A DNA stretch of 64,000 bases from Escherichia phage DT57C: sequence record NC_027356.1; one strand, 5' to 3'. Position numbers and translations under genes: made by a program. The notes under the pieces are model-generated. The model was not told where the DNA came from, did no database searches, and was given only the letters and a program-made list of their open reading frames with translations. This document shows positions 3,625-54,765 of the stretch, piece after piece. Within the stretch, counting starts at the first letter, position 1. Each line of letters opens with the position of its first letter.

Positions 3625-3653
3625 TTGCTTGATGCTCAAAATCTTGATATAAT
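3625..3653 (+). promoter_or_regulatory. T5-type sigma70 early promoter
   Basis: TTGCTT (3625-3630), 17-bp spacer, TATAAT (3648-3653). Confidence 0.6.
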
Positions 3654-3671
3654 ATTTATATTGAATTGAGA

Positions 3672-4249
3672 GACATTAGTAAAAATTGATTTTGCTAATT
3701 TTTCTTAGTGAAGCTGACAAGGGATTTACGGCGAGAGGAATCGATGACCCGTAAATAGCTGCATAAGGTACGTTGCTAGAGCTTTACGAAAAAGTTTTTT
3801 CTTGTTTACAATCCGCGATACGGAACAGTTAGGCTGCCCCATTAAGGGTTGTTTTAACTGTTACGTGTTAGTTTTTAAACAAATAGTTAATAGAATACTT
3901 AGCGATCTACACCCCGTAGGAACCCTGGTAAGGCCTCGAAGCAACCTAGTGTGAGGTGGTTGTGAAGTGAGACGGGAAGAGTGAAAAACTCTGAGAAGTG
4001 ATGACGTAAGGTATACTGCATCTAGTATGAGCTAGTACATGAAGCATTAGGTGAGCAAATCTGGCTTAGCGGCCATCCTCAAGGATTTGTGCGGTATAGT
4101 GAAGCGGCAGTGTAGCGTGAAAGTGGAAGTTGCCACCCCACTTCAGTATTTGCGATTAATTTGTTGAGAAATTGACAGTAACAGTTGTTCTATTCTTTCT
4201 GAATAGTCCTAAAGAAAACTTATTTCATTTCCAACACAGGAGTATTGTT
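3672..4249 (+). other. long ORF-free leader; candidate structured RNA or origin-proximal region
   Basis: about 580 bp between a consensus promoter and the next CDS with no ORF of 60 aa or more in any frame; purine-rich GTGAAG-like repeats. Confidence 0.3.
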
Positions 4250-7265: not shown

Positions 7266-7294
7266 TTGCTTTCAGGAAAATTTTTCTGTATAAT
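7266..7294 (+). promoter_or_regulatory. T5-type sigma70 early promoter
   Basis: TTGCTT, 17 bp, TATAAT, then ATAAATTTGAGAGAGGAG. Confidence 0.65.
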
Positions 7295-7325
7295 AGATTC
7301 ATAAATTTGAGAGAGGAGTTTAAAT

Positions 7326-9476: not shown

Positions 9477-9505
9477 TTGCTTTCAACTCAGTTTTGATAT
9501 ATAAT
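9477..9505 (+). promoter_or_regulatory. T5-type sigma70 early promoter
   Basis: TTGCTT, 17 bp, TATAAT. Confidence 0.65.
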
Positions 9506-9519
9506 ATTTATATAAATTA

Positions 9520-9735
9520 ATGAGAGGATCAATCATGGCAATGACAGTAACACTTCCCAAGATTCAAGCAAAACTTAATCTGCTTTCCACAGCACGCATT
9601 AATTATCAAGATAACATAGGCACAGTAAATCAAAAGGCGTACAAAGATGCGTTTCTGAAAGAATCTGCTGATTTGATGGATATGGTTACACAATATAATA
9701 AAGAACTCAAGATGGAAATCGCCGATGATGAATAA
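9520..9735 (+). CDS. hypothetical protein (71 aa)
   Basis: ORF overlapping the ligase A start. Confidence 0.4.
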   Translation: MRGSIMAMTVTLPKIQAKLNLLSTARINYQDNIGTVNQKAYKDAFLKESADLMDMVTQYNKELKMEIADDE

Positions 9736-14945: not shown

Positions 14946-17513
14946 TTGAAAATCGCAGTAGTTGATAAAGCTCTAAACAACACTCGTTACGATAAACATT
15001 TCCAGCTATACGGCGAGGAAGTTGATGTATTCCATATGTGTAACGAGAAGTTGTCCGGTCGTTTGCTCAAAAAGCATATTACTATCGGGACCCCGGAAAA
15101 CCCATTTGACCCGAATGATTATGATTTTGTTATACTGGTAGGTGCCGAACCTTTCCTGTACTTTGCGGGTAAGAAAGGTATTGGTGATTATACTGGTAAA
15201 CGTGTAGAGTATAATGGATATGCTAACTGGATTGCTAGTATCAGCCCAGCCCAGCTACACTTTAAACCTGAAATGAAACCAGTTTTTGATGCAACAGTAG
15301 AGAATATCCACGATATTATCAATGGTCGTGAGAAGATTGCAAAAGCTGGTGATTACCGTCCTATTACTGACCCTGACAAGGCAGAAGAATATATCAAGAT
15401 GGTGTATAATATGGTTATCGGACCTGTCGCATTCGACTCCGAAACCTCAGCACTATACTGTCGAGATGGTTATCTGCTTGGTGTTTCTATGTCTCACCAA
15501 GAGTATCAGGGTGTATATATCGATTCTGATTGTCTCACAGAAGTTGCAGTATATTATCTCCAGAAAATTCTGGATAGTGAAAACCATACTATTGTTTTTC
15601 ACAACTTGAAGTTTGATATGCACTTTTATAAGTACCATCTGGGACTTACTTTTGATAAAGCACATAAAGAACACAGGCTCCATGATACCATGTTGCAGCA
15701 TTATGTTCTAGATGAACGTCGTGGTACTCATGGCTTGAAATCTCTAGCAATGAAGTATACCGATATGGGTGACTATGACTTCGAACTAGATAAGTTCAAA
15801 GATGATTACTGCAAAGCACATAAAATCAAGAAAGAAGATTTCACCTATGATTTGATTCCATTTGATATTATGTGGCCTTACGCTGCAAAGGATACAGATG
15901 CTACCCTACGTTTACACAACTTCTTTTTACCAAAAATTGAGAAGAATGAAAAACTTTGCAGTCTGTATTACGATGTTCTAATGCCTGGTTGTGTATTCCT
16001 ACAGCGTGTCGAAGATCGTGGCGCACCTATCTCTATTGATCGTTTGAAAGAAGCTCAGTATCAATTGACTCATAATTTGAATAAAGCCCGTGAGAAACTG
16101 TACACTTATCCAGAAGTTAAACAGCTAGAACAAGATCAGAATGAAGCATTTAACCCGAACTCTGTTAAACAACTTCGTGTTCTTCTATTCGATTATGTTG
16201 GTTTGACTCCAACTGGTAAGTTAACGGATACTGGTGCAGATTCTACAAACGCAGAAGCTCTGAATGAACTGGCAACCCAGCATCCGATTGCTAAAACTCT
16301 TCTAGAGATTCGTAAGCTGACTAAGCTGATCTCTACTTATGTTGAGAAGATTCTACTGAGTATTGATGCAGATGGTTGCATTCGTACTGGTTTCCATGAA
16401 CATATGACTACTTCTGGTCGTCTGAGTTCTTCTGGTAAACTGAACCTGCAACAGTTACCACGTGATGAATCTATCATTAAGGGTTGTGTAGTTGCACCAC
16501 CTGGATACCGTGTAATCGCATGGGACTTAACAACTGCGGAAGTTTATTATGCTGCTGTTCTATCTGGTGATAGAAATATGCAACAAGTATTTATTAATAT
16601 GAGAAATGAACCTGATAAATACCCTGACTTCCACTCTAACATCGCTCACATGGTATTTAAATTGCAATGTGAACCTCGTGATGTTAAAAAGTTATTCCCA
16701 GCTCTGCGTCAAGCAGCTAAGGCAATTACCTTTGGTATTTTGTACGGTTCTGGCCCGGCTAAAGTAGCACATTCTGTTAACGAAGCATTGCTAGAACAAG
16801 CAGCCAAAACTGGGGAACCATTTGTTGAATGTACTGTTGCAGATGCTAAAGAGTACATTGAGACTTACTTTGGTCAATTCCCACAGCTTAAGCGTTGGAT
16901 TGATAAGTGCCACGATCAGATCAAGAATCATGGATTTATCTATAGTCACTTTGGTCGTAAACGTCGTCTGCATAATATCCACTCCGAAGACCGTGGTGTT
17001 CAGGGTGAAGAAATCCGTTCTGGATTTAACGCAATCATTCAGTCTGCTTCTTCTGATAGTCTCCTTTTAGGTGCTGTAGATGCAGATAATGAGATCATTT
17101 CTCTTGGCCTAGAACAAGAGATGAAGATTGTTATGCTGGTTCATGACTCCGTAGTTGCTATTGTTCGTGAAGACTTGATTGATCAATACAATGAAATCCT
17201 GATTCGTAATATTCAGAAAGACCGTGGTATCAGTATTCCTGGCTGTCCGATTGGTATTGATTCAGATTCTGAAGCTGGAGGTTCTCGTGACTATTCTTGT
17301 GGTAAGATGAAGAAACAGCACCCATCAATCGCTTGTATTGATGATGACGAATATACTCGTTACGTTAAAGAAATGCTTCTTGATTCTGAATTCGAGTATA
17401 AGAAATTAGCTGCAATGGATAAAGAGCATCCAGACCACAGCAAGTACAAGGATGATAAGTTTATTGCTGTATGTAAAGATCTGGATAACGTGAAAAGGGT
17501 TCTCGGTGCTTAA
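14946..17513 (+). CDS. DNA polymerase (family A, T5-type, with 3'-5' exonuclease domain)
   Basis: 855 aa; exo motif FDSETSAL; pol motifs RQAAKAITFGILYG and VHDSV; TTG start with RBS AAGAGGAGA. Confidence 0.9.
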   Translation: MKIAVVDKALNNTRYDKHFQLYGEEVDVFHMCNEKLSGRLLKKHITIGTPENPFDPNDYDFVILVGAEPFLYFAGKKGIGDYTGKRVEYNGYANWIASISPAQLHFKPEMKPVFDATVENIHDIINGREKIAKAGDYRPITDPDKAEEYIKMVYNMVIGPVAFDSETSALYCRDGYLLGVSMSHQEYQGVYIDSDCLTEVAVYYLQKILDSENHTIVFHNLKFDMHFYKYHLGLTFDKAHKEHRLHDTMLQHYVLDERRGTHGLKSLAMKYTDMGDYDFELDKFKDDYCKAHKIKKEDFTYDLIPFDIMWPYAAKDTDATLRLHNFFLPKIEKNEKLCSLYYDVLMPGCVFLQRVEDRGAPISIDRLKEAQYQLTHNLNKAREKLYTYPEVKQLEQDQNEAFNPNSVKQLRVLLFDYVGLTPTGKLTDTGADSTNAEALNELATQHPIAKTLLEIRKLTKLISTYVEKILLSIDADGCIRTGFHEHMTTSGRLSSSGKLNLQQLPRDESIIKGCVVAPPGYRVIAWDLTTAEVYYAAVLSGDRNMQQVFINMRNEPDKYPDFHSNIAHMVFKLQCEPRDVKKLFPALRQAAKAITFGILYGSGPAKVAHSVNEALLEQAAKTGEPFVECTVADAKEYIETYFGQFPQLKRWIDKCHDQIKNHGFIYSHFGRKRRLHNIHSEDRGVQGEEIRSGFNAIIQSASSDSLLLGAVDADNEIISLGLEQEMKIVMLVHDSVVAIVREDLIDQYNEILIRNIQKDRGISIPGCPIGIDSDSEAGGSRDYSCGKMKKQHPSIACIDDDEYTRYVKEMLLDSEFEYKKLAAMDKEHPDHSKYKDDKFIAVCKDLDNVKRVLGA

Positions 17514-18003
17514 TTTCAAATTGCCCGTCTATGCGTTACGGGCGTTTGTATCAATTGAGCAAGAAGGTGATTATTCCGTAATTACAACAAGATATAATAA
17601 ATATGTGCTAGATAACAGGAAGTTGCCTGGCACGTTTTCTCAACGTAGGCTTATTCTATTTGAGAAACGGAAAGAATTACCATATAAGCTCTATCCTATT
17701 AGAGGTAGAATATCAATGTTGTCTCAATTAGTTGGGTCAAAGCGTAACCAATTTGTAGATTCTGATGGAAATCTTATTAATTGGAAGAAAACTACGTTCT
17801 ATGATGTTGTCACCTCTAAAGTTTTGCATTCAGCTAGAATTTACAATGGAAAATACCAATGCTATGTGGCTAAAGTCCCTTATCCATTTGTATTATCCTA
17901 TGTTCCAGCTTATATAAGCTATATTCTGGTAAATAATAGCCCTGTTATTTATCAAGTCCATCAAGAGGAGCCTGAAATTCCTAGACTTAGAATAAAATTA
18001 TGA
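17506..18003 (+). CDS. hypothetical protein (165 aa)
   Basis: ORF between polymerase and helicase; GTG start; ATGA coupling to the next gene. Confidence 0.4.
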   Translation: MLNFKLPVYALRAFVSIEQEGDYSVITTRYNKYVLDNRKLPGTFSQRRLILFEKRKELPYKLYPIRGRISMLSQLVGSKRNQFVDSDGNLINWKKTTFYDVVTSKVLHSARIYNGKYQCYVAKVPYPFVLSYVPAYISYILVNNSPVIYQVHQEEPEIPRLRIKL

Positions 18004-19352
18004 AGGTTGTTATATCTAATAAAGCCTATTTCAAGCCCGATGATGAACTTTGGGATTATTGTAGTAAGCAAACCACTTACCACATAGAGACAATGACTAG
18101 TAAATACCCTATTATGTATAAGAATAGTGGTGTTGTTGCCAAAGAGATTAAGTGGATTCCTATTACACGTCTGGATTTACTAGATGCTAAAGGAATAAAA
18201 TACGAATTAGTTGATAAACGCACGTTAGCTCCGGTAGATATACCAAAACCGTCGTTTAAACTGCGTGAAGAAGATCAGCTTCCAATATATGAAGAATGCG
18301 ATGATACCTGCATTATTAATGGTAAGCCTGGGTTTGGTAAAACTATCCTAGCCCTTGCACTTGCGTATAAATTTGGCCAGAAAACTTTGGTAATCTGTAC
18401 GAATACATCCATTCGTGAAATGTGGGCAGCAGAAGTTCGTAAATGGTTTGGGTTTGAACCGGGCATCATAGGTTCTGGGAAATACAATATCGATCCACCA
18501 ATTGTAGTCAGTAATATTCAAACAGTGAATAAACATGCGAATAATCTTTCTAAAGTATTCGGTACTGTTATAGTTGATGAAGTTCACCATTGTGTGGCTA
18601 CAACTTTCACTAACTTCCTAGAAATATCATGTGCTCGCTATAAAATTGGACTATCTGGTACGTTAAAACGTAAGGATGGCTTGCAAGTTATGTTCAAAGA
18701 TTTCTTTGGATATAAAATATTTAGCCCGCCGGTTAATAATACTGTTGCACCTACAATCCATAGGTACTCCGTACCAGTTGAATTGTCTGGAAACCAAAAC
18801 GTACCGTGGGCATTACGTGCTAACGATGTGTATAACCACCCTGAATATCGAGGAGCTATTATAAACCTAGCACATTTATATGTGAATATGGGACATAAAG
18901 TACTCATTGTAAGTGATAGAACAGAGTTAATCCAAACAGTACTAGAAGCTCTTACGCAGCGGGGTGTCACAACATATGAAATTATAGGGGCAACCCACTT
19001 AGATGACCGATTAAAAATTCAGGAAGATATAGCAAAAGGTGGGCCTTGTGTACTTGCAGCAGCTCAAAGTATCTTCTCTGAGGGTATTTCCCTTAATGAG
19101 CTATCTTGTTTAATAATGGGAAGCCTCATTAATAATGAATCTCTCATTGAACAGCTTGCAGGCCGTGTTCAACGTATTGTCGAGGGTAAACTCGACCCTA
19201 TTGTTGTAGATCTAATTATGAAGGGTGGCACTGGGCTAAGACAGGCTTCTGGACGTATGGCAGTATATCGTAACAACGGGTGGAAAACTATTACTATGAC
19301 TCCAGAGAAAGCAGTTCAATTAGCTAAAATTGCATTTGGCAACAGCTCATAA
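18000..19352 (+). CDS. SF2 DNA helicase (D10-like)
   Basis: Walker A GKPGFGKT; DEVH box VDEVHH; helicase C-terminal motifs. Confidence 0.8.
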   Translation: MKVVISNKAYFKPDDELWDYCSKQTTYHIETMTSKYPIMYKNSGVVAKEIKWIPITRLDLLDAKGIKYELVDKRTLAPVDIPKPSFKLREEDQLPIYEECDDTCIINGKPGFGKTILALALAYKFGQKTLVICTNTSIREMWAAEVRKWFGFEPGIIGSGKYNIDPPIVVSNIQTVNKHANNLSKVFGTVIVDEVHHCVATTFTNFLEISCARYKIGLSGTLKRKDGLQVMFKDFFGYKIFSPPVNNTVAPTIHRYSVPVELSGNQNVPWALRANDVYNHPEYRGAIINLAHLYVNMGHKVLIVSDRTELIQTVLEALTQRGVTTYEIIGATHLDDRLKIQEDIAKGGPCVLAAAQSIFSEGISLNELSCLIMGSLINNESLIEQLAGRVQRIVEGKLDPIVVDLIMKGGTGLRQASGRMAVYRNNGWKTITMTPEKAVQLAKIAFGNSS

Positions 19353-19364
19353 ATGATGTATAAT
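19336..19364 (+). promoter_or_regulatory. sigma70 promoter (first of tandem pair)
   Basis: TTGGCA, 17 bp, TATAAT; followed by hairpin TTCGGA...TCCGAA at about 19392-19415. Confidence 0.5.
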
Positions 19365-19435
19365 ATATACATAAATTTGAGAGAGAAAGTTTCGGATTGA
19401 TAAGAAAGTCCGAAGCAGAAAAATAAAAATTTTAG

Positions 19436-19465
19436 TTGCTAAATTCTCTCGAAATCTAGTATAAT
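19436..19465 (+). promoter_or_regulatory. T5-type sigma70 promoter (second of tandem pair)
   Basis: TTGCTA, 18 bp, TATAAT, ATAAATTCGAGGAG. Confidence 0.55.
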
Positions 19466-19572
19466 ATATACATAAATTCGAGGAGAAAACAAAAATTAAA
19501 TTCTTCGATTATGAAAGGCTATATTTACTAGCTAGAGGAAATTCCGACCTAATTATTAAGCTATTCAAAAGA

Positions 19573-19857
19573 ATGCTTACAGAGCCTGATGCTCACCAAT
19601 TATTGGTCGGTTCCTCATTCATTTTGAATGAATCAACAATAGTTGATAATCCAAATAAATTGTCTAATAGACAACTGGCAGAATATCTAGGAATTTTAAG
19701 TCTACGAAATTATGCCGAATACAAGTTTACAAACGATCCTAGTTTGGACATACAATATGTTCCAGTATGGATACCACGTTTAGTAATCGACACTAACCCA
19801 CTAATCGCAATTAACAAATCGAAATTAATCTTTAAAGAGGAAATAAAATATGGCTAA
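19573..19857 (+). CDS. hypothetical protein (94 aa)
   Basis: ORF only; start uncertain. Confidence 0.3.
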   Translation: MLTEPDAHQLLVGSSFILNESTIVDNPNKLSNRQLAEYLGILSLRNYAEYKFTNDPSLDIQYVPVWIPRLVIDTNPLIAINKSKLIFKEEIKYG

Positions 19858-20623
19858 GTCTTGGGGCGAAACTACTGGCGGTTCTAACGATAAAATCGAA
19901 TTCCTGAAGTTCAACAACGGTATCACTCGTGTTCGTATCGTTTCTGGTGTTCTTCCACGTTATGTCTATTGGCTGACTAATAAAGAGGGTGGCGTAGCTC
20001 CTTTCGAATGTCTCCGTTTTAACCGTGACAAAGAGAGTTTTGTTCGTGGTAAAGCTGATCCGGTTCATGAGATGGGCTTCTTTGAGAAAGAGCTGGATAA
20101 AGATGGTAATCGTGTTCCACTGAAACCGAAGAAAAACTATATCGCTTTTGTTATCGACCGTTCTGATAACAAACTGAAAGTAATGGAAGTCAAAGCTACT
20201 ATTCTGAAAGGCATCCAGTCTATCATGAAGCAGTTGAATCTGGCAACCCCGTTTGATATTGATATTTCTATCGAGAAAAAAGGCAAGGGTTTCGATACTG
20301 AGTATGATGTACAGCAGATTGCTGCTATGCAGTTCCAGATTAAGCTGCAAGATCCTAACAGTGCAGAATCTAAGCAATATGCTGCGGATGTAGATCTGAT
20401 TGGTGAAGCTATGTGTGATGAAGATGGCGACATCATTAAGTTCGAAAAAGTTCCTTCCCTGGAACAAACCTATCCGGTTCCTACCTATGAAGAGCAGAAA
20501 GAAGCAATTCAAGCCTTCATGGAAGGTCGTGAGAATAAAGATGATGATGCCAAATCTGGTAACAGCAATGCTGGTTCCCAGAAAGGTATTGACCAAGAAG
20601 CTGCAAGCGATCTGGACGACTAA
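19850..20623 (+). CDS. D11-like protein; possible ssDNA-binding protein
   Basis: 257 aa; host-like high-expression codon usage; acidic C-terminal tail (...SDLDD) typical of SSBs; function inferred. Confidence 0.5.
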   Translation: MAKSWGETTGGSNDKIEFLKFNNGITRVRIVSGVLPRYVYWLTNKEGGVAPFECLRFNRDKESFVRGKADPVHEMGFFEKELDKDGNRVPLKPKKNYIAFVIDRSDNKLKVMEVKATILKGIQSIMKQLNLATPFDIDISIEKKGKGFDTEYDVQQIAAMQFQIKLQDPNSAESKQYAADVDLIGEAMCDEDGDIIKFEKVPSLEQTYPVPTYEEQKEAIQAFMEGRENKDDDAKSGNSNAGSQKGIDQEAASDLDD

Positions 20624-20628
20624 TAAAT

Positions 20629-20656
20629 AGAGGGGCTTCGGCCCCTTTCTTTTTAA
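20629..20656 (+). terminator. rho-independent terminator
   Basis: AGGGGC-TTCG-GCCCCT hairpin plus T-run. Confidence 0.7.
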
Positions 20657-20659
20657 CTT

Positions 20660-21637
20660 ATGAGAATATTATTTAGTGCTGATCATCATATCAAACTAGG
20701 GCAAGATAAAATCCCCAAAGAATGGCAGAAGCGTCGCTTCCTGATGCTAGGAGAACGGTTAAATGATATATTCCATAATCATAACTGTGATTTGCATATT
20801 ATTGGTGGTGATTTATTTGATCATTCCGACCCGTCGTCAGAAGAAATAGAACTGCTTGAACAGTTTATGTCAAGACTTGACCATCCCGGCAAAATCTTTA
20901 CTGGAAATCATGAAATGTTAACTAAAACCATTTCGTGTCTATATCATTATGCGGGAGTTATTAATAAAGTAACTAGTGGGAAGTGGGAAGTAATTACCAA
21001 ACCATATCGTTCCCCTGAATTTGATATTGTTCCATATGATGAGATTCATAAACCCAAGTGGAAACCTGCTGAATCAAAACTATGTTTCACGCATGTTCGT
21101 GGTGAAATCCCTCCACATGTAAAACCAGAAATTGATCTAACTAAGTACAACTGTTATGATACTGTAATTGCTGGCGATTTACACTCTTATACTAATAGCC
21201 AGACTATCGGATCTACCAGACTTCTCTACCCAGGGTCTCCATTAACTACATCGTTCCATAGAGAACGCACAAAAGGTACAAATGGTTGCTTTATCATTGA
21301 TACCGACACATTAAAAGTAGAATGGATTGAACTAGGTGATTTACCACAACTGATTCGTAAAACAATCGGAGCAGGTGAAGAGATGGAACCTAGTGATTAT
21401 GATCGTGTAGTCTACGAAGTTACTGGTGACGTTGTTCAATTAAAGTCTATCAAAGACTCTGATTTATTAGATAAGAAGATTAACCATCGAGTTACTAAAG
21501 ACGCTAAGTTAAATCTTGTTGATCTTGATATGTTAGGTGAACTTGAACTTTACTTCCGTGAAGTCGAGAAGCTATCTCAAGGCGACATTGATAGAATCTT
21601 GGCTAGAGCTGCGAAATATGTCAAAGATTACAATTAA
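20660..21637 (+). CDS. SbcD/Mre11-like nuclease (D12-like)
   Basis: metallophosphatase motifs DHH, GDLFDH, GNHE. Confidence 0.8.
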   Translation: MRILFSADHHIKLGQDKIPKEWQKRRFLMLGERLNDIFHNHNCDLHIIGGDLFDHSDPSSEEIELLEQFMSRLDHPGKIFTGNHEMLTKTISCLYHYAGVINKVTSGKWEVITKPYRSPEFDIVPYDEIHKPKWKPAESKLCFTHVRGEIPPHVKPEIDLTKYNCYDTVIAGDLHSYTNSQTIGSTRLLYPGSPLTTSFHRERTKGTNGCFIIDTDTLKVEWIELGDLPQLIRKTIGAGEEMEPSDYDRVVYEVTGDVVQLKSIKDSDLLDKKINHRVTKDAKLNLVDLDMLGELELYFREVEKLSQGDIDRILARAAKYVKDYN

Positions 21638-23456
21638 GACACTAAAATTTAGTAACGTTATGTCTTACGGTAAGGGCATCGTAATTCATTTCGATAAGAA
21701 TCCAGTTACTCAACTAATTGGCGGCAATGGACTAGGGAAATCCACCATCGCTACGGTTATAGAAGAGCTATTCTATAATAAAAATTCTCGAGGTATCAAG
21801 AAGGATGCATTGTTCTCTTGGAATGCCCCTAGGAAAGAATACGATATGCACGCTTATTTCTCGAAAGATGATGATGAGTATGAGCTGCATAAAGTTGTCA
21901 AGTCAACTGCTAAAGTAACGTTGATTAAGAATGGGGAAGATATTAGTGGACATACGGCAACCCAAACATACAAGATGATTGAAGAGATTATGGGTGGTGA
22001 TTTTCAAACATTCACCAAACTAATTTATCAATCAGTGGGTTCCAACCTAGATTTTCTAAAAGCAACGGATGCAACACGTAAGGCTTTTCTTGTTAACCTG
22101 TTTAACCAGGAACAATACAAAGAAATGTCGGAAACTATTAAGGCTGACCGCAAAGAAATAGCAAATACCTTAAATAATTTGCAGGGCCAAATGGCTGTAA
22201 TTACGAAAATCCTTAATGGAAAAAATAATCTAGGAACCTTGCAGGAACCTGTAGAAGTACCGGAGTTTGATGAAGAACCATTAGCACAAGAACTTACTGA
22301 ATCGAAAATTAAGGCGGCATTAGCCAAGTCACAAGAGGCTAATATTACTAAGTTGCGTAATTTGGACAAAGCTGTACAAGTTGCCGAACAATCTTTCGAA
22401 CCTTTCAAAAATTTGCCCGCGCCCACCGACCAAAATGAAGAGATCTCGAGTGTTACGCGTGACCTAACGATTGTGACCTCACGTGCGAGCGAAGTTAAGA
22501 AACGTTATCAGAAGTTCAAGCAAGAGGCTTCAAATACTGAATGCCCTACTTGCGGTACTCATCTGGATACAACTGCTGCTCAAAAAGCAATGGATATGGC
22601 TAGAACAGAATATGATCCTCTGTTCAAAGAGAAGCAATCTCTTGAAGCTAAGCTAGAACAGTTGAAGAAAGAACAACTTGAGTACGTTGCGTATACTAGA
22701 GCAAAGGATGCTTTGGATAAAGCAGTGGTAGCTAGAGACGAGTTCAAAAATTCAATGAGTGATGCTTCTTTTGAAGAACTCAATGTGCAAATCCTACAGG
22801 TGCAAATCCGACAATTAGAACAGGAAATCGCTGATGGCCGCTCTAAGGTTGCAATTGCCAAAGAGCATAATGCAAATGTCGAATTAGCCAATGCAAAATA
22901 TAAAGCAAAGCTAGAACAGATTGAGAAAGCTGAAGCAGAAATGTCTGAGATTACTTCCAAACTTGATGGAGTAGCCGAAGCTGTAGCTGATCTCGATATT
23001 CTAATTGCTGCATTGAAAAATCTGGTGGGATATAAACTAGAACATAGTGTGAAAGTATTTGAAGAACTAATTAATAAATACCTTTCCATTATGACTGGCG
23101 GTAAATTCGCACTTGGATTTGAACTTGATGAAACAAAATTACAAGTAGTAATCTTCAATGATGGAAACCGTACCAGTATGGAGAACTGCTCTACTGGTCA
23201 GCAAAGTCGAATTAATCTAGCAACCCTGCTAGCTATTCGGATGCTGTTAACCTCTATTAGTAAAGTTAATATTAATCTTCTATTCCTTGATGAAGTAATT
23301 AGCTTTATTGATACGAAAGGACTTGATACTCTCGTTGAACTATTAAATGAGGAAGAAAGTCTAAATTCTATCATTGTTTCTCACGGGCATACGCATCCAT
23401 TGGCTCATAAGATTACTGTCAAGAAAGATGCAGAAGGATTTTCCTACTTAGAATAA
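21618..23456 (+). CDS. SbcC/Rad50-like ATPase (D13-like)
   Basis: Walker A GGNGLGKST, long coiled coil, CPTCG zinc hook, signature STGQQSR, Walker B LLFLDE; ATG at 21618 (track ORF opens at 21537). Confidence 0.8.
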   Translation: MSKITIKTLKFSNVMSYGKGIVIHFDKNPVTQLIGGNGLGKSTIATVIEELFYNKNSRGIKKDALFSWNAPRKEYDMHAYFSKDDDEYELHKVVKSTAKVTLIKNGEDISGHTATQTYKMIEEIMGGDFQTFTKLIYQSVGSNLDFLKATDATRKAFLVNLFNQEQYKEMSETIKADRKEIANTLNNLQGQMAVITKILNGKNNLGTLQEPVEVPEFDEEPLAQELTESKIKAALAKSQEANITKLRNLDKAVQVAEQSFEPFKNLPAPTDQNEEISSVTRDLTIVTSRASEVKKRYQKFKQEASNTECPTCGTHLDTTAAQKAMDMARTEYDPLFKEKQSLEAKLEQLKKEQLEYVAYTRAKDALDKAVVARDEFKNSMSDASFEELNVQILQVQIRQLEQEIADGRSKVAIAKEHNANVELANAKYKAKLEQIEKAEAEMSEITSKLDGVAEAVADLDILIAALKNLVGYKLEHSVKVFEELINKYLSIMTGGKFALGFELDETKLQVVIFNDGNRTSMENCSTGQQSRINLATLLAIRMLLTSISKVNINLLFLDEVISFIDTKGLDTLVELLNEEESLNSIIVSHGHTHPLAHKITVKKDAEGFSYLE

Positions 23457-54705: not shown

Positions 54706-54734
54706 TTGCTTTTATCTCTCTATTTTGCTATAAT
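54706..54734 (+). promoter_or_regulatory. T5-type sigma70 promoter for llp
   Basis: TTGCTT, 17 bp, TATAAT, downstream ATAAATTAGAAATGGAGAGA. Confidence 0.65.
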
Positions 54735-54765
54735 AGATTCATAAATTAGAAATGGAGAGATAAAT

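Follow-up and report, generated by a model that had tools for sequence, protein, structure and literature searches.

P31A and P31B, an annotated pair of tandem T5 early promoters between the D10 helicase gene and T5.125 in Escherichia phage DT57C

Strong promoters in tandem are known from phage T7 (A1-A2-A3) and from the E. coli rrn units (P1-P2), and at spacings of about 100–125 bp the polymerase footprints do not overlap. Other described systems couple the site of transcription initiation to translation, or use an unusual start codon. For the T4 genes e, soc, 49 and I-TevI, read-through RNAs fold so that the ribosome-binding site is buried in a hairpin, and translatable mRNA comes from a promoter that lies within it; E. 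coli infC is an AUU-initiated gene. Features resembling each of these were observed or predicted at one junction of Escherichia phage DT57C (NC_027356.1), of which 64,000 nucleotides were analyzed (here called the window; all positions refer to it unless stated). Two co-directional sigma-70 promoters, P31A and P31B, lie 101 bp apart where the D10 helicase gene gives way to T5.125, a small gene that precedes D11. As in T7 A1-A2-A3 and rrn P1-P2, strong co-directional sigma-70 promoters spaced by approximately 100–125 bp belong to one transcription unit. Unlike those examples, however, the P31 pair lies within a longer string of genes and not at the genome end, and the number of promoters at the junction ranges from one to three among related phages.

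The tandem promoters themselves are already known: the T5 reference genome has both annotated, and they are members of the well-known promoter family that is the source of PN25. The window from about position 19000 onward corresponds to T5 record AY543070 from 56152 onward, and the promoters annotated there as P31A (window 19316–19390) and P31B (19417–19491) are exactly the sites observed here; neither entry carries an experimental qualifier. In AY587007, P31B is a putative early promoter and the -10 and leader of P31A are labeled "repeat c copy 7", and in AY692264 P31B is the sole promoter annotated of the pair, so that two of the three T5 records annotate P31B alone as a promoter. AY543070 also contains a second tandem pair in the same early region, P-K28b and P-K28a, 93 bp apart and upstream of ligB, which makes tandem early promoters an annotated, recurring feature of T5. 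P31A and P31B resemble that pair in being co-directional, about 100 bp apart and in the same early region, but P-K28b is of another type (TTGACA...TATACT), whereas P31A and P31B are identical to each other over 20 nt. A search of the accessible literature found neither start-site or transcript mapping data for P31A and P31B nor papers on T5 tandem promoters, and the two are unmentioned in the Klimuk 2020 paper and its supplement.

The junction is found in a large number of phages. The segment 19200–19900 matched 439 phage records, with T5-type phages best at approximately 99% identity (the three T5 reference records included), and the P31A/P31B arrangement is present in 436 of the 439. According to the annotation of AY543070, the order of elements in the unit is pol promoter, pol, T5.123, D10, P31A and P31B, T5.125, D11 and terminator, and no terminator is annotated from the pol promoter to P31A/P31B. 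D10, identified from the list of open reading frames and from AY543070, occupies 18000–19352 on the plus strand and encodes a branch-migration helicase (PMC5180179); its final codons (KIAFGNSS*) overlap P31A in its upstream and -35 region. D11 (19850–20623, plus strand) is the gene for the single-strand DNA-binding protein (SSB), as indicated by its match to phrog_1607 (E 2e-106), the list of open reading frames and existing annotations. Its first 8 nt are shared with the end of T5.125, and it has its own ribosome-binding site. The unit is closed by an intrinsic terminator at 20629–20648 on the plus strand, with an 8-bp stem containing five G-C pairs and followed by a T-run, which was recovered by a terminator scan and is annotated in AY543070.

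The initial annotation of this DNA had proposed two consensus-like promoters about 100 bp apart, and this is borne out by the two annotated cores. In P31A (19336–19364, plus strand), the -35 TTGGCA (19336–19341) is separated by a 17-nt spacer from the -10 TATAAT (19359–19364), with a predicted start at A19371; in P31B (19436–19465, plus strand), the -35 TTGCTA (19436–19441) is separated by 18 nt from the -10 TATAAT (19460–19465), with a predicted start at A19472. They match the sigma-70 consensus at 11 and 10 of 12 positions, respectively, and are the two top plus-strand promoter matches within 17000–22000. A generic sigma-70 scan showed no enrichment (21 sites against 17 ± 3.4 expected from a shuffled background), and the significance of both sites derives from their extended similarity to the T5 early-promoter family. 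The 20-mer shared by P31A and P31B, GTATAATATATACATAAATT, has six matches in the window at no more than three mismatches (0.06 expected), and the T5 consensus TTGCTW-N17/18-TATAATA has eight, P31B among them, all on the plus strand (0.05 expected in the window). The consensus published for T5-like promoters comprises TTGCTw and TATAATA, AAAAATT upstream of -43, and TAAATT (PMC3326045).

When P31A and P31B were aligned with PN25, P-K28a and five further promoters of the window, both shared the -43 A/T block, the -35 and the -10, as well as the +1 region CATAAATT and a purine-rich downstream region, in agreement with this consensus. The A-rich block CAGAAAAATAAAAATTTTA at 19417–19435 (plus strand) is, by this alignment, the -43 (UP-type) block of P31B. 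With T5 early promoters of the PN25/P-K28a type, both sites therefore have in common an A/T block at -43, a -35 resembling TTGCTW, a spacer of 17–18 nt and TATAATA. P31B fits the T5-type -35, spacer and -10 exactly; P31A, in contrast, reads TTGGCA-17-TATAATA, lacking the family's TTGCTW, and its TTGGCA is embedded in the last codons of D10. The two sites are further related by a 31-nt direct repeat (19351–19381 and 19452–19482, at a spacing of 101) that includes the identical 20-mer, and from -10 to +7 they do not differ.

The region initially transcribed from P31A, ATAAATTTGAGAGAGAAA (19371–19388, plus strand), is nearly identical in the alignment to that downstream of PN25. It contains a degenerate Shine-Dalgarno sequence, and no conserved gene lies behind it; the sole open reading frame there has nine codons and a TTG start, and its start region is deleted in Klebsiella phages. 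Two micro-ORFs behind P31A (the nine-codon TTG frame and a 22-codon ATT frame) were considered as genes and rejected, with between-genus substitutions that are not codon-like and a start lost in Klebsiella phages. The PN25-like leader, the degenerate Shine-Dalgarno sequence and the nine-codon frame fit a promoter whose small gene is absent in T5. It could be argued from the last two of these features, and from the annotation of P31B alone in AY587007 and AY692264, that P31A is an inactive relic of the promoter of a lost gene and that only P31B fires, particularly as some relatives hold a genuine small open reading frame in this slot (84 aa in Providencia PR1 and 134 aa in Vibrio Ceto, each between both promoters).

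We consider such a loss of function unlikely, because P31A is the site closer to the sigma-70 consensus, its sequence from -10 to +7 is that of P31B, and it is the better conserved of the two between genera. The segment 19283–19432, which comprises the end of D10, P31A, its leader, a hairpin and an A-tract, is 92–98% identical between T5-type phages and Epseptimavirus, against 87% overall and 68–73% for the region of P31B. A promoter-like site over the helicase stop codon is found in My1, Novosibvirus and Klebsiella phages (the same sequence in My1 only), and in My1 it is the sole one, P31A-like, with a ribosome-binding site and gene directly after it. In phiR2-01, the -10 of P31B abuts a TTG start as the result of a deletion; transcription predicted from P31B would begin after the start of the open reading frame, so that an upstream promoter is needed there.

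Elsewhere the junction takes several forms. T5-type phages, Epseptimavirus, Novosibvirus and Vibrio phage 294E48.1 have two promoters about 100 bp apart and no open reading frame between them, and Klebsiella phages have three promoters, the -10 of the last ending 4 nt before the ATG. At precisely the boundary between D10 and P31A, some epseptimaviruses have an insertion of an HNH homing endonuclease, and the conservation of 19283–19432 may in part reflect a homing-endonuclease target site and a co-conversion tract overlapping the block. Judged by this comparison of junctions across related phages, P31A is an old and widespread promoter and the P31A–P31B interval is a variable slot. The helicase/SSB junction, with its one to three promoters and its small open reading frames or homing endonuclease, thereby helps to read promoter evolution in T5-like phages.

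The initial annotation had also placed a hairpin with a 6-bp stem between the promoters. The perfect 6-bp core TTCGGA/TCCGAA is indeed present (19391–19396 and 19409–19414), and in RNA it extends to a stem of 10 bp, two of them G.U pairs, closed by a loop of 8 nt (19389–19416, plus strand). The predicted stability of the plus-strand RNA is -14.0 kcal/mol (z -7.0), compared with only -5.3 kcal/mol for the minus strand. Next after the hairpin, whose end lies 19 nt from the -35 of P31B, comes the A-rich block of that promoter. The possibility that hairpin and A-tract form a dispersed repeat was rejected, as there is a single copy in the window and one per genome in 25 IMG/VR contigs.

A further suggestion had been that P31A yields a short attenuated RNA or that the hairpin acts as a transcriptional insulator. 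Stated for this site, P31A would give rise to an RNA of about 45–65 nt ending at or just after the hairpin, or the hairpin would insulate P31B from upstream transcription. A stable, G+C-containing stem-loop in a 5' leader is what intrinsic terminators and attenuators have in common with this locus, and the greater stability of the fold in plus- than in minus-strand RNA counts in favor as well. Its sequence is kept between genera, Klebsiella T5-like phages retain the stem despite a 9-nt deletion that leaves a 3-nt loop, Novosibvirus has a non-homologous 14-bp hairpin in the same interval, and a UUUU run occurs at 19430–19433. However, T is missing from the 8 nt directly 3' of the stem (CAGAAAAA), and the sequence that follows the stem, CAGAAAAATAAAAA, has no U-run and aligns with the -43 A/T block of P31B. 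Since an A-tract and not a U-tract follows the hairpin, it is not an intrinsic terminator. The terminator scan was blank at the hairpin and returned no plus-strand terminator-like site in 19352–20629, the first one downstream being that after D11; unlike in attenuators, no alternative antiterminator pairing was found. An Rfam scan of 18800–20100 at a permissive E-value gave chance-level matches, the best at 20.9 bits against a threshold of 40 and every one well short of its family's gathering score. Use of the hairpin as a terminator on the minus strand was rejected as well, given its weakness there (-5.3 kcal/mol) and a T-run on the wrong side.

The pattern of variation also speaks against a short RNA or insulator. 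Among 12 representative leaders analyzed with RNAalifold, none of the 10 pairs showed a compensatory change, the only differences being U-G to C-G and A-U to G-U. In 23 T5-type sequences, the 28-nt hairpin contains four singleton SNPs; three of these, found in three of the 22 IMG/VR-derived genomes, disrupt the stem. The density of SNPs is near that of the adjacent coding sequence, where variation is mostly synonymous. In My1 the hairpin is wholly absent. A short RNA or an insulator at this site is thus very unlikely: what stands of the initial interpretation is the pair of co-directional promoters in tandem, separated by a stem-loop, and the attenuated-RNA or insulator role finds no support in the sequence.

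Conservation of sequence with no covariation could also be expected if TTCGGA..TCCGAA were an operator in the DNA, bound by a dimeric protein of phage or host and regulating P31B from about -83 to -56 or blocking elongation from P31A. The two arms match perfectly as a 6-bp palindrome, and the pair has one occurrence in the window (0.04 expected) and one per genome. In Klebsiella phages, however, the distance between the half-sites is reduced from 12 to 3 nt with the arms kept, which a rigid dimer would not tolerate, and the extension of the stem through G.U pairs exists only in plus-strand RNA. This variable spacing and strand asymmetry argue against a DNA operator, and other promoters have no additional copies nearby that would point to a regulon; the probability of an operator is very low, in our estimation. 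Because the hairpin is conserved in sequence but lacks covariation, any function assigned to it is putative. It is most readily taken as a non-terminating leader structure, probably of modest function, and its role, if any, is probably in RNA stability or processing.

Taken together, the most probable reading, which we hold with some confidence, is that P31A and P31B are the tandem early sigma-70 promoters annotated in T5, placed inside the pol-D10-T5.125-D11 string, and that transcripts from both read through to the terminator at 20629–20648. The sequence motifs, their earlier annotation, the conservation, the lack of terminator features and the constraint on the 26 added codons of T5.125 are shown directly. 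We infer from the sequence that both start sites are used in vivo, that transcription reads through, and that the arrangement serves gene dosage. Both promoters would fire early, from the predicted starts A19371 and A19472, and at their spacing of 101 bp the polymerase footprints need not overlap. The hairpin at 19389–19416 would then be part of the 5' leader of the P31A transcript and would not terminate transcription, so that RNAs from P31A and P31B alike would cross T5.125 and D11. Their output would add to read-through from the pol promoter and may thus raise the supply of SSB, which is needed in bulk. In phiR2-01 and in Klebsiella phages the -10 of the downstream promoter abuts the start codon, so the division of labor between promoters differs between genera, and the dosage argument is one that we infer.

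T5.125 appears to begin earlier than annotated. In T5 it is annotated as a protein of 94 aa from ATG 19573, and the initial annotation had accordingly seen no open reading frame of at least 60 aa until 19573. This holds for ATG, GTG and TTG starts, from which alone open reading frames had been called; the frame itself is open from 19465, after the TAA at 19462, and has no ATG, GTG or TTG until 19573, but a conserved gene can be followed from ATT 19495. ATG 19573 has no Shine-Dalgarno sequence. ATT 19495, in contrast, is preceded at 9 nt by GAGGAG (19480–19485, plus strand), a Shine-Dalgarno sequence positioned as in other T5 promoter-leader modules. The codon is ATT in all 23 T5-type sequences and ATG in all six Epseptimavirus-type sequences, sister lineages carry ATG, GTG or TTG at this place, and the gene of phage Seabear is annotated from the ATG equivalent to ATT 19495.

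Selection on the upstream codons points the same way. For codons 2–26, pN/pS within the ATT clade was 0.06, and between clades it was 0.12, values like the 0.13 and 0.10, respectively, of the rest of the gene; by this measure, the 26 extra codons of T5.125 are under purifying selection. Homologues from Klebsiella, Pectobacterium, Proteus, Providencia and Vibrio phages have 117–124 aa and align from residue 1, with F3, D5, Y6, E7, Y10, L12, G15 and N16 invariant in the N-terminal part. The match to phrog_4258 covers 1–120 of its 120 profile positions, and 903 of 905 matching phage records cover 80% or more of the 120 aa used as the query. T5.125 is therefore likely a protein of 120 aa (19495–19857, plus strand) with predicted AUU initiation, and with a start at 19495 the leader of P31B has an ordinary length of 23 nt. 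As for what the protein does, there was no Pfam match, the PHROG family is one of unknown function, a PDB profile search returned designed repeat proteins only, and a single-sequence AlphaFold model was unusable (pLDDT 41).

Like infC, T5.125 has ATT at the start position and a strong Shine-Dalgarno sequence 9 nt before it; unlike infC, it gives no sign of IF3-linked autoregulation, and AUU initiation is deduced here from constraint acting on the codons before ATG 19573. With a start codon as weak as AUU, T5.125 would be made in smaller amounts than D11, which has its own ribosome-binding site. In more than 200 T5-type genomes, the annotation of T5.125 and its homologues as 94 aa is thus probably wrong, the likely start being an AUU 78 nt earlier. 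The annotation correction is small, but AUU is a rare and mechanistically interesting start codon, and we regard this as the most useful new point of the analysis.

A second hairpin is predicted across the -10 region of P31B (19444–19487, plus strand; -11.3 kcal/mol, z -4.45). Its arms are the promoter spacer UUCUCUCGAA and UUCGAGGAGAA, the latter including the Shine-Dalgarno sequence of T5.125. The predicted P31B start at 19472 lies inside this hairpin, so the fold is possible only in transcripts begun upstream of P31B. This recalls T4 e, soc, 49 and I-TevI, in that a spacer–Shine-Dalgarno pairing encloses the local promoter start. Unlike in those T4 genes, P31A and P31B are of one temporal class, and the fold is a prediction: an equivalent is found in Epseptimavirus (z -4.09) and none in Klebsiella phages, and the RNAalifold consensus of the 12 leaders contains the first hairpin (19389–19416) only and not that at 19444–19487.

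These elements could together form a post-transcriptional control module, in which the hairpins and the AUU start would determine how much T5.125 is made relative to SSB, depending on the promoter that had fired. The leader hairpin would stabilize or process P31A and read-through RNAs, the hairpin at 19444–19487 would hide the Shine-Dalgarno sequence of T5.125 in all transcripts begun upstream of P31B, and translation of T5.125 from AUU would be weak and IF3-sensitive. We regard such a module as improbable. Similar spacer/leader dyads occur in approximately half of the T5-type promoters of the window. If the control module were real, the spacer-CTC/leader-GAGAG dyad of several T5 early promoters would amount to a genome-wide device tying translation to the local promoter. 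The promoter-embedded dyad offers a testable idea, that of promoter-dependent translation.

Across the Demerecviridae, sequence comparison indicates that the junction between the D10 helicase gene and the small conserved gene T5.125 is a variable slot. In Providencia phage PR1 (L069 279-533) and Vibrio phage Ceto (L070 139-543), a small ORF lies between both promoters. Three tandem promoters are found in the Klebsiella phages (L007 700-960), and a single promoter is found in My1 (L008 820-885). In some epseptimaviruses, a gene for a 177-aa HNH homing endonuclease is located precisely between D10 and P31A, the first of the two tandem early promoters (L056 502-1035; also L062), and in L056 homology with the window resumes at 19325, past this insertion. 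The terminal D10 codons of the HNH-carrying phages are recoded (..RLAQEIFKT* versus ..QLAKIAFGNSS*), and the old D10 3' end remains as the P31A -35 region.

Window 19407-19453, which comprises the hairpin 3' arm, the A-tract, the -35 element of the second promoter, P31B, and the start of its spacer, was compared with a Klebsiella phage (L007) and an epseptimavirus (L057). By-eye counts give ~94% identity between T5 and the Klebsiella phages, but only ~83% between T5 and Epseptimavirus, whereas the flanking genes exhibit the reverse pattern (66% and 89%, respectively). These opposite relationships hint that promoter modules have been exchanged between phages.

In Yersinia phage phiR2-01 (HE956708; L006 940-975), the P31B leader has been lost by a ~29-nt deletion, such that the -10 element TATAAT is followed by one base and then by the TTG starting the conserved ORF. 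HE956708 leaves this ORF unannotated, and the ORF would contain the start site predicted for P31B. In the Klebsiella phages, the -10 element of the last promoter ends 4 nt ahead of the ATG of the T5.125 homologue (L007 940-960, L009 853-873), which suggests either that this homologue is translated from a leaderless mRNA or that it relies on the upstream promoters.

In T5 records, the annotation of T5.125 begins with the ATG at 19573 and covers 94 aa. The conserved protein, however, is predicted to have 120 aa and to begin at the ATT at 19495, with GAGGAG upstream. This start position is occupied by ATT in 23 of 23 T5-type sequences and by ATG in all six epseptimaviruses, and the 26 additional codons (window 19495-19572) are under purifying selection.

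Several T5-type early promoters contain a dyad whose two arms, CTC or CTCTC between the -35 and -10 elements and GAGAG in the leader, are complementary (window 19340-19392, 19440-19492, 54710-54762, 3629-3681 and 9481-9533). Hairpins are predicted at these dyads with z of -2.9 to -4.5 in four of nine promoters, and more weakly at 9481 (z -0.8); PN25, P-K28a and two others of the nine lack the dyad. In read-through RNA, the dyad would mask the Shine-Dalgarno sequence. The window position of PN25 (7266-7320) is shifted downstream by ~370 bp compared with T5 AY543070 (L072 6892-6966), indicating that the window differs from T5 by an insertion or deletion somewhere upstream of ~7 kb.
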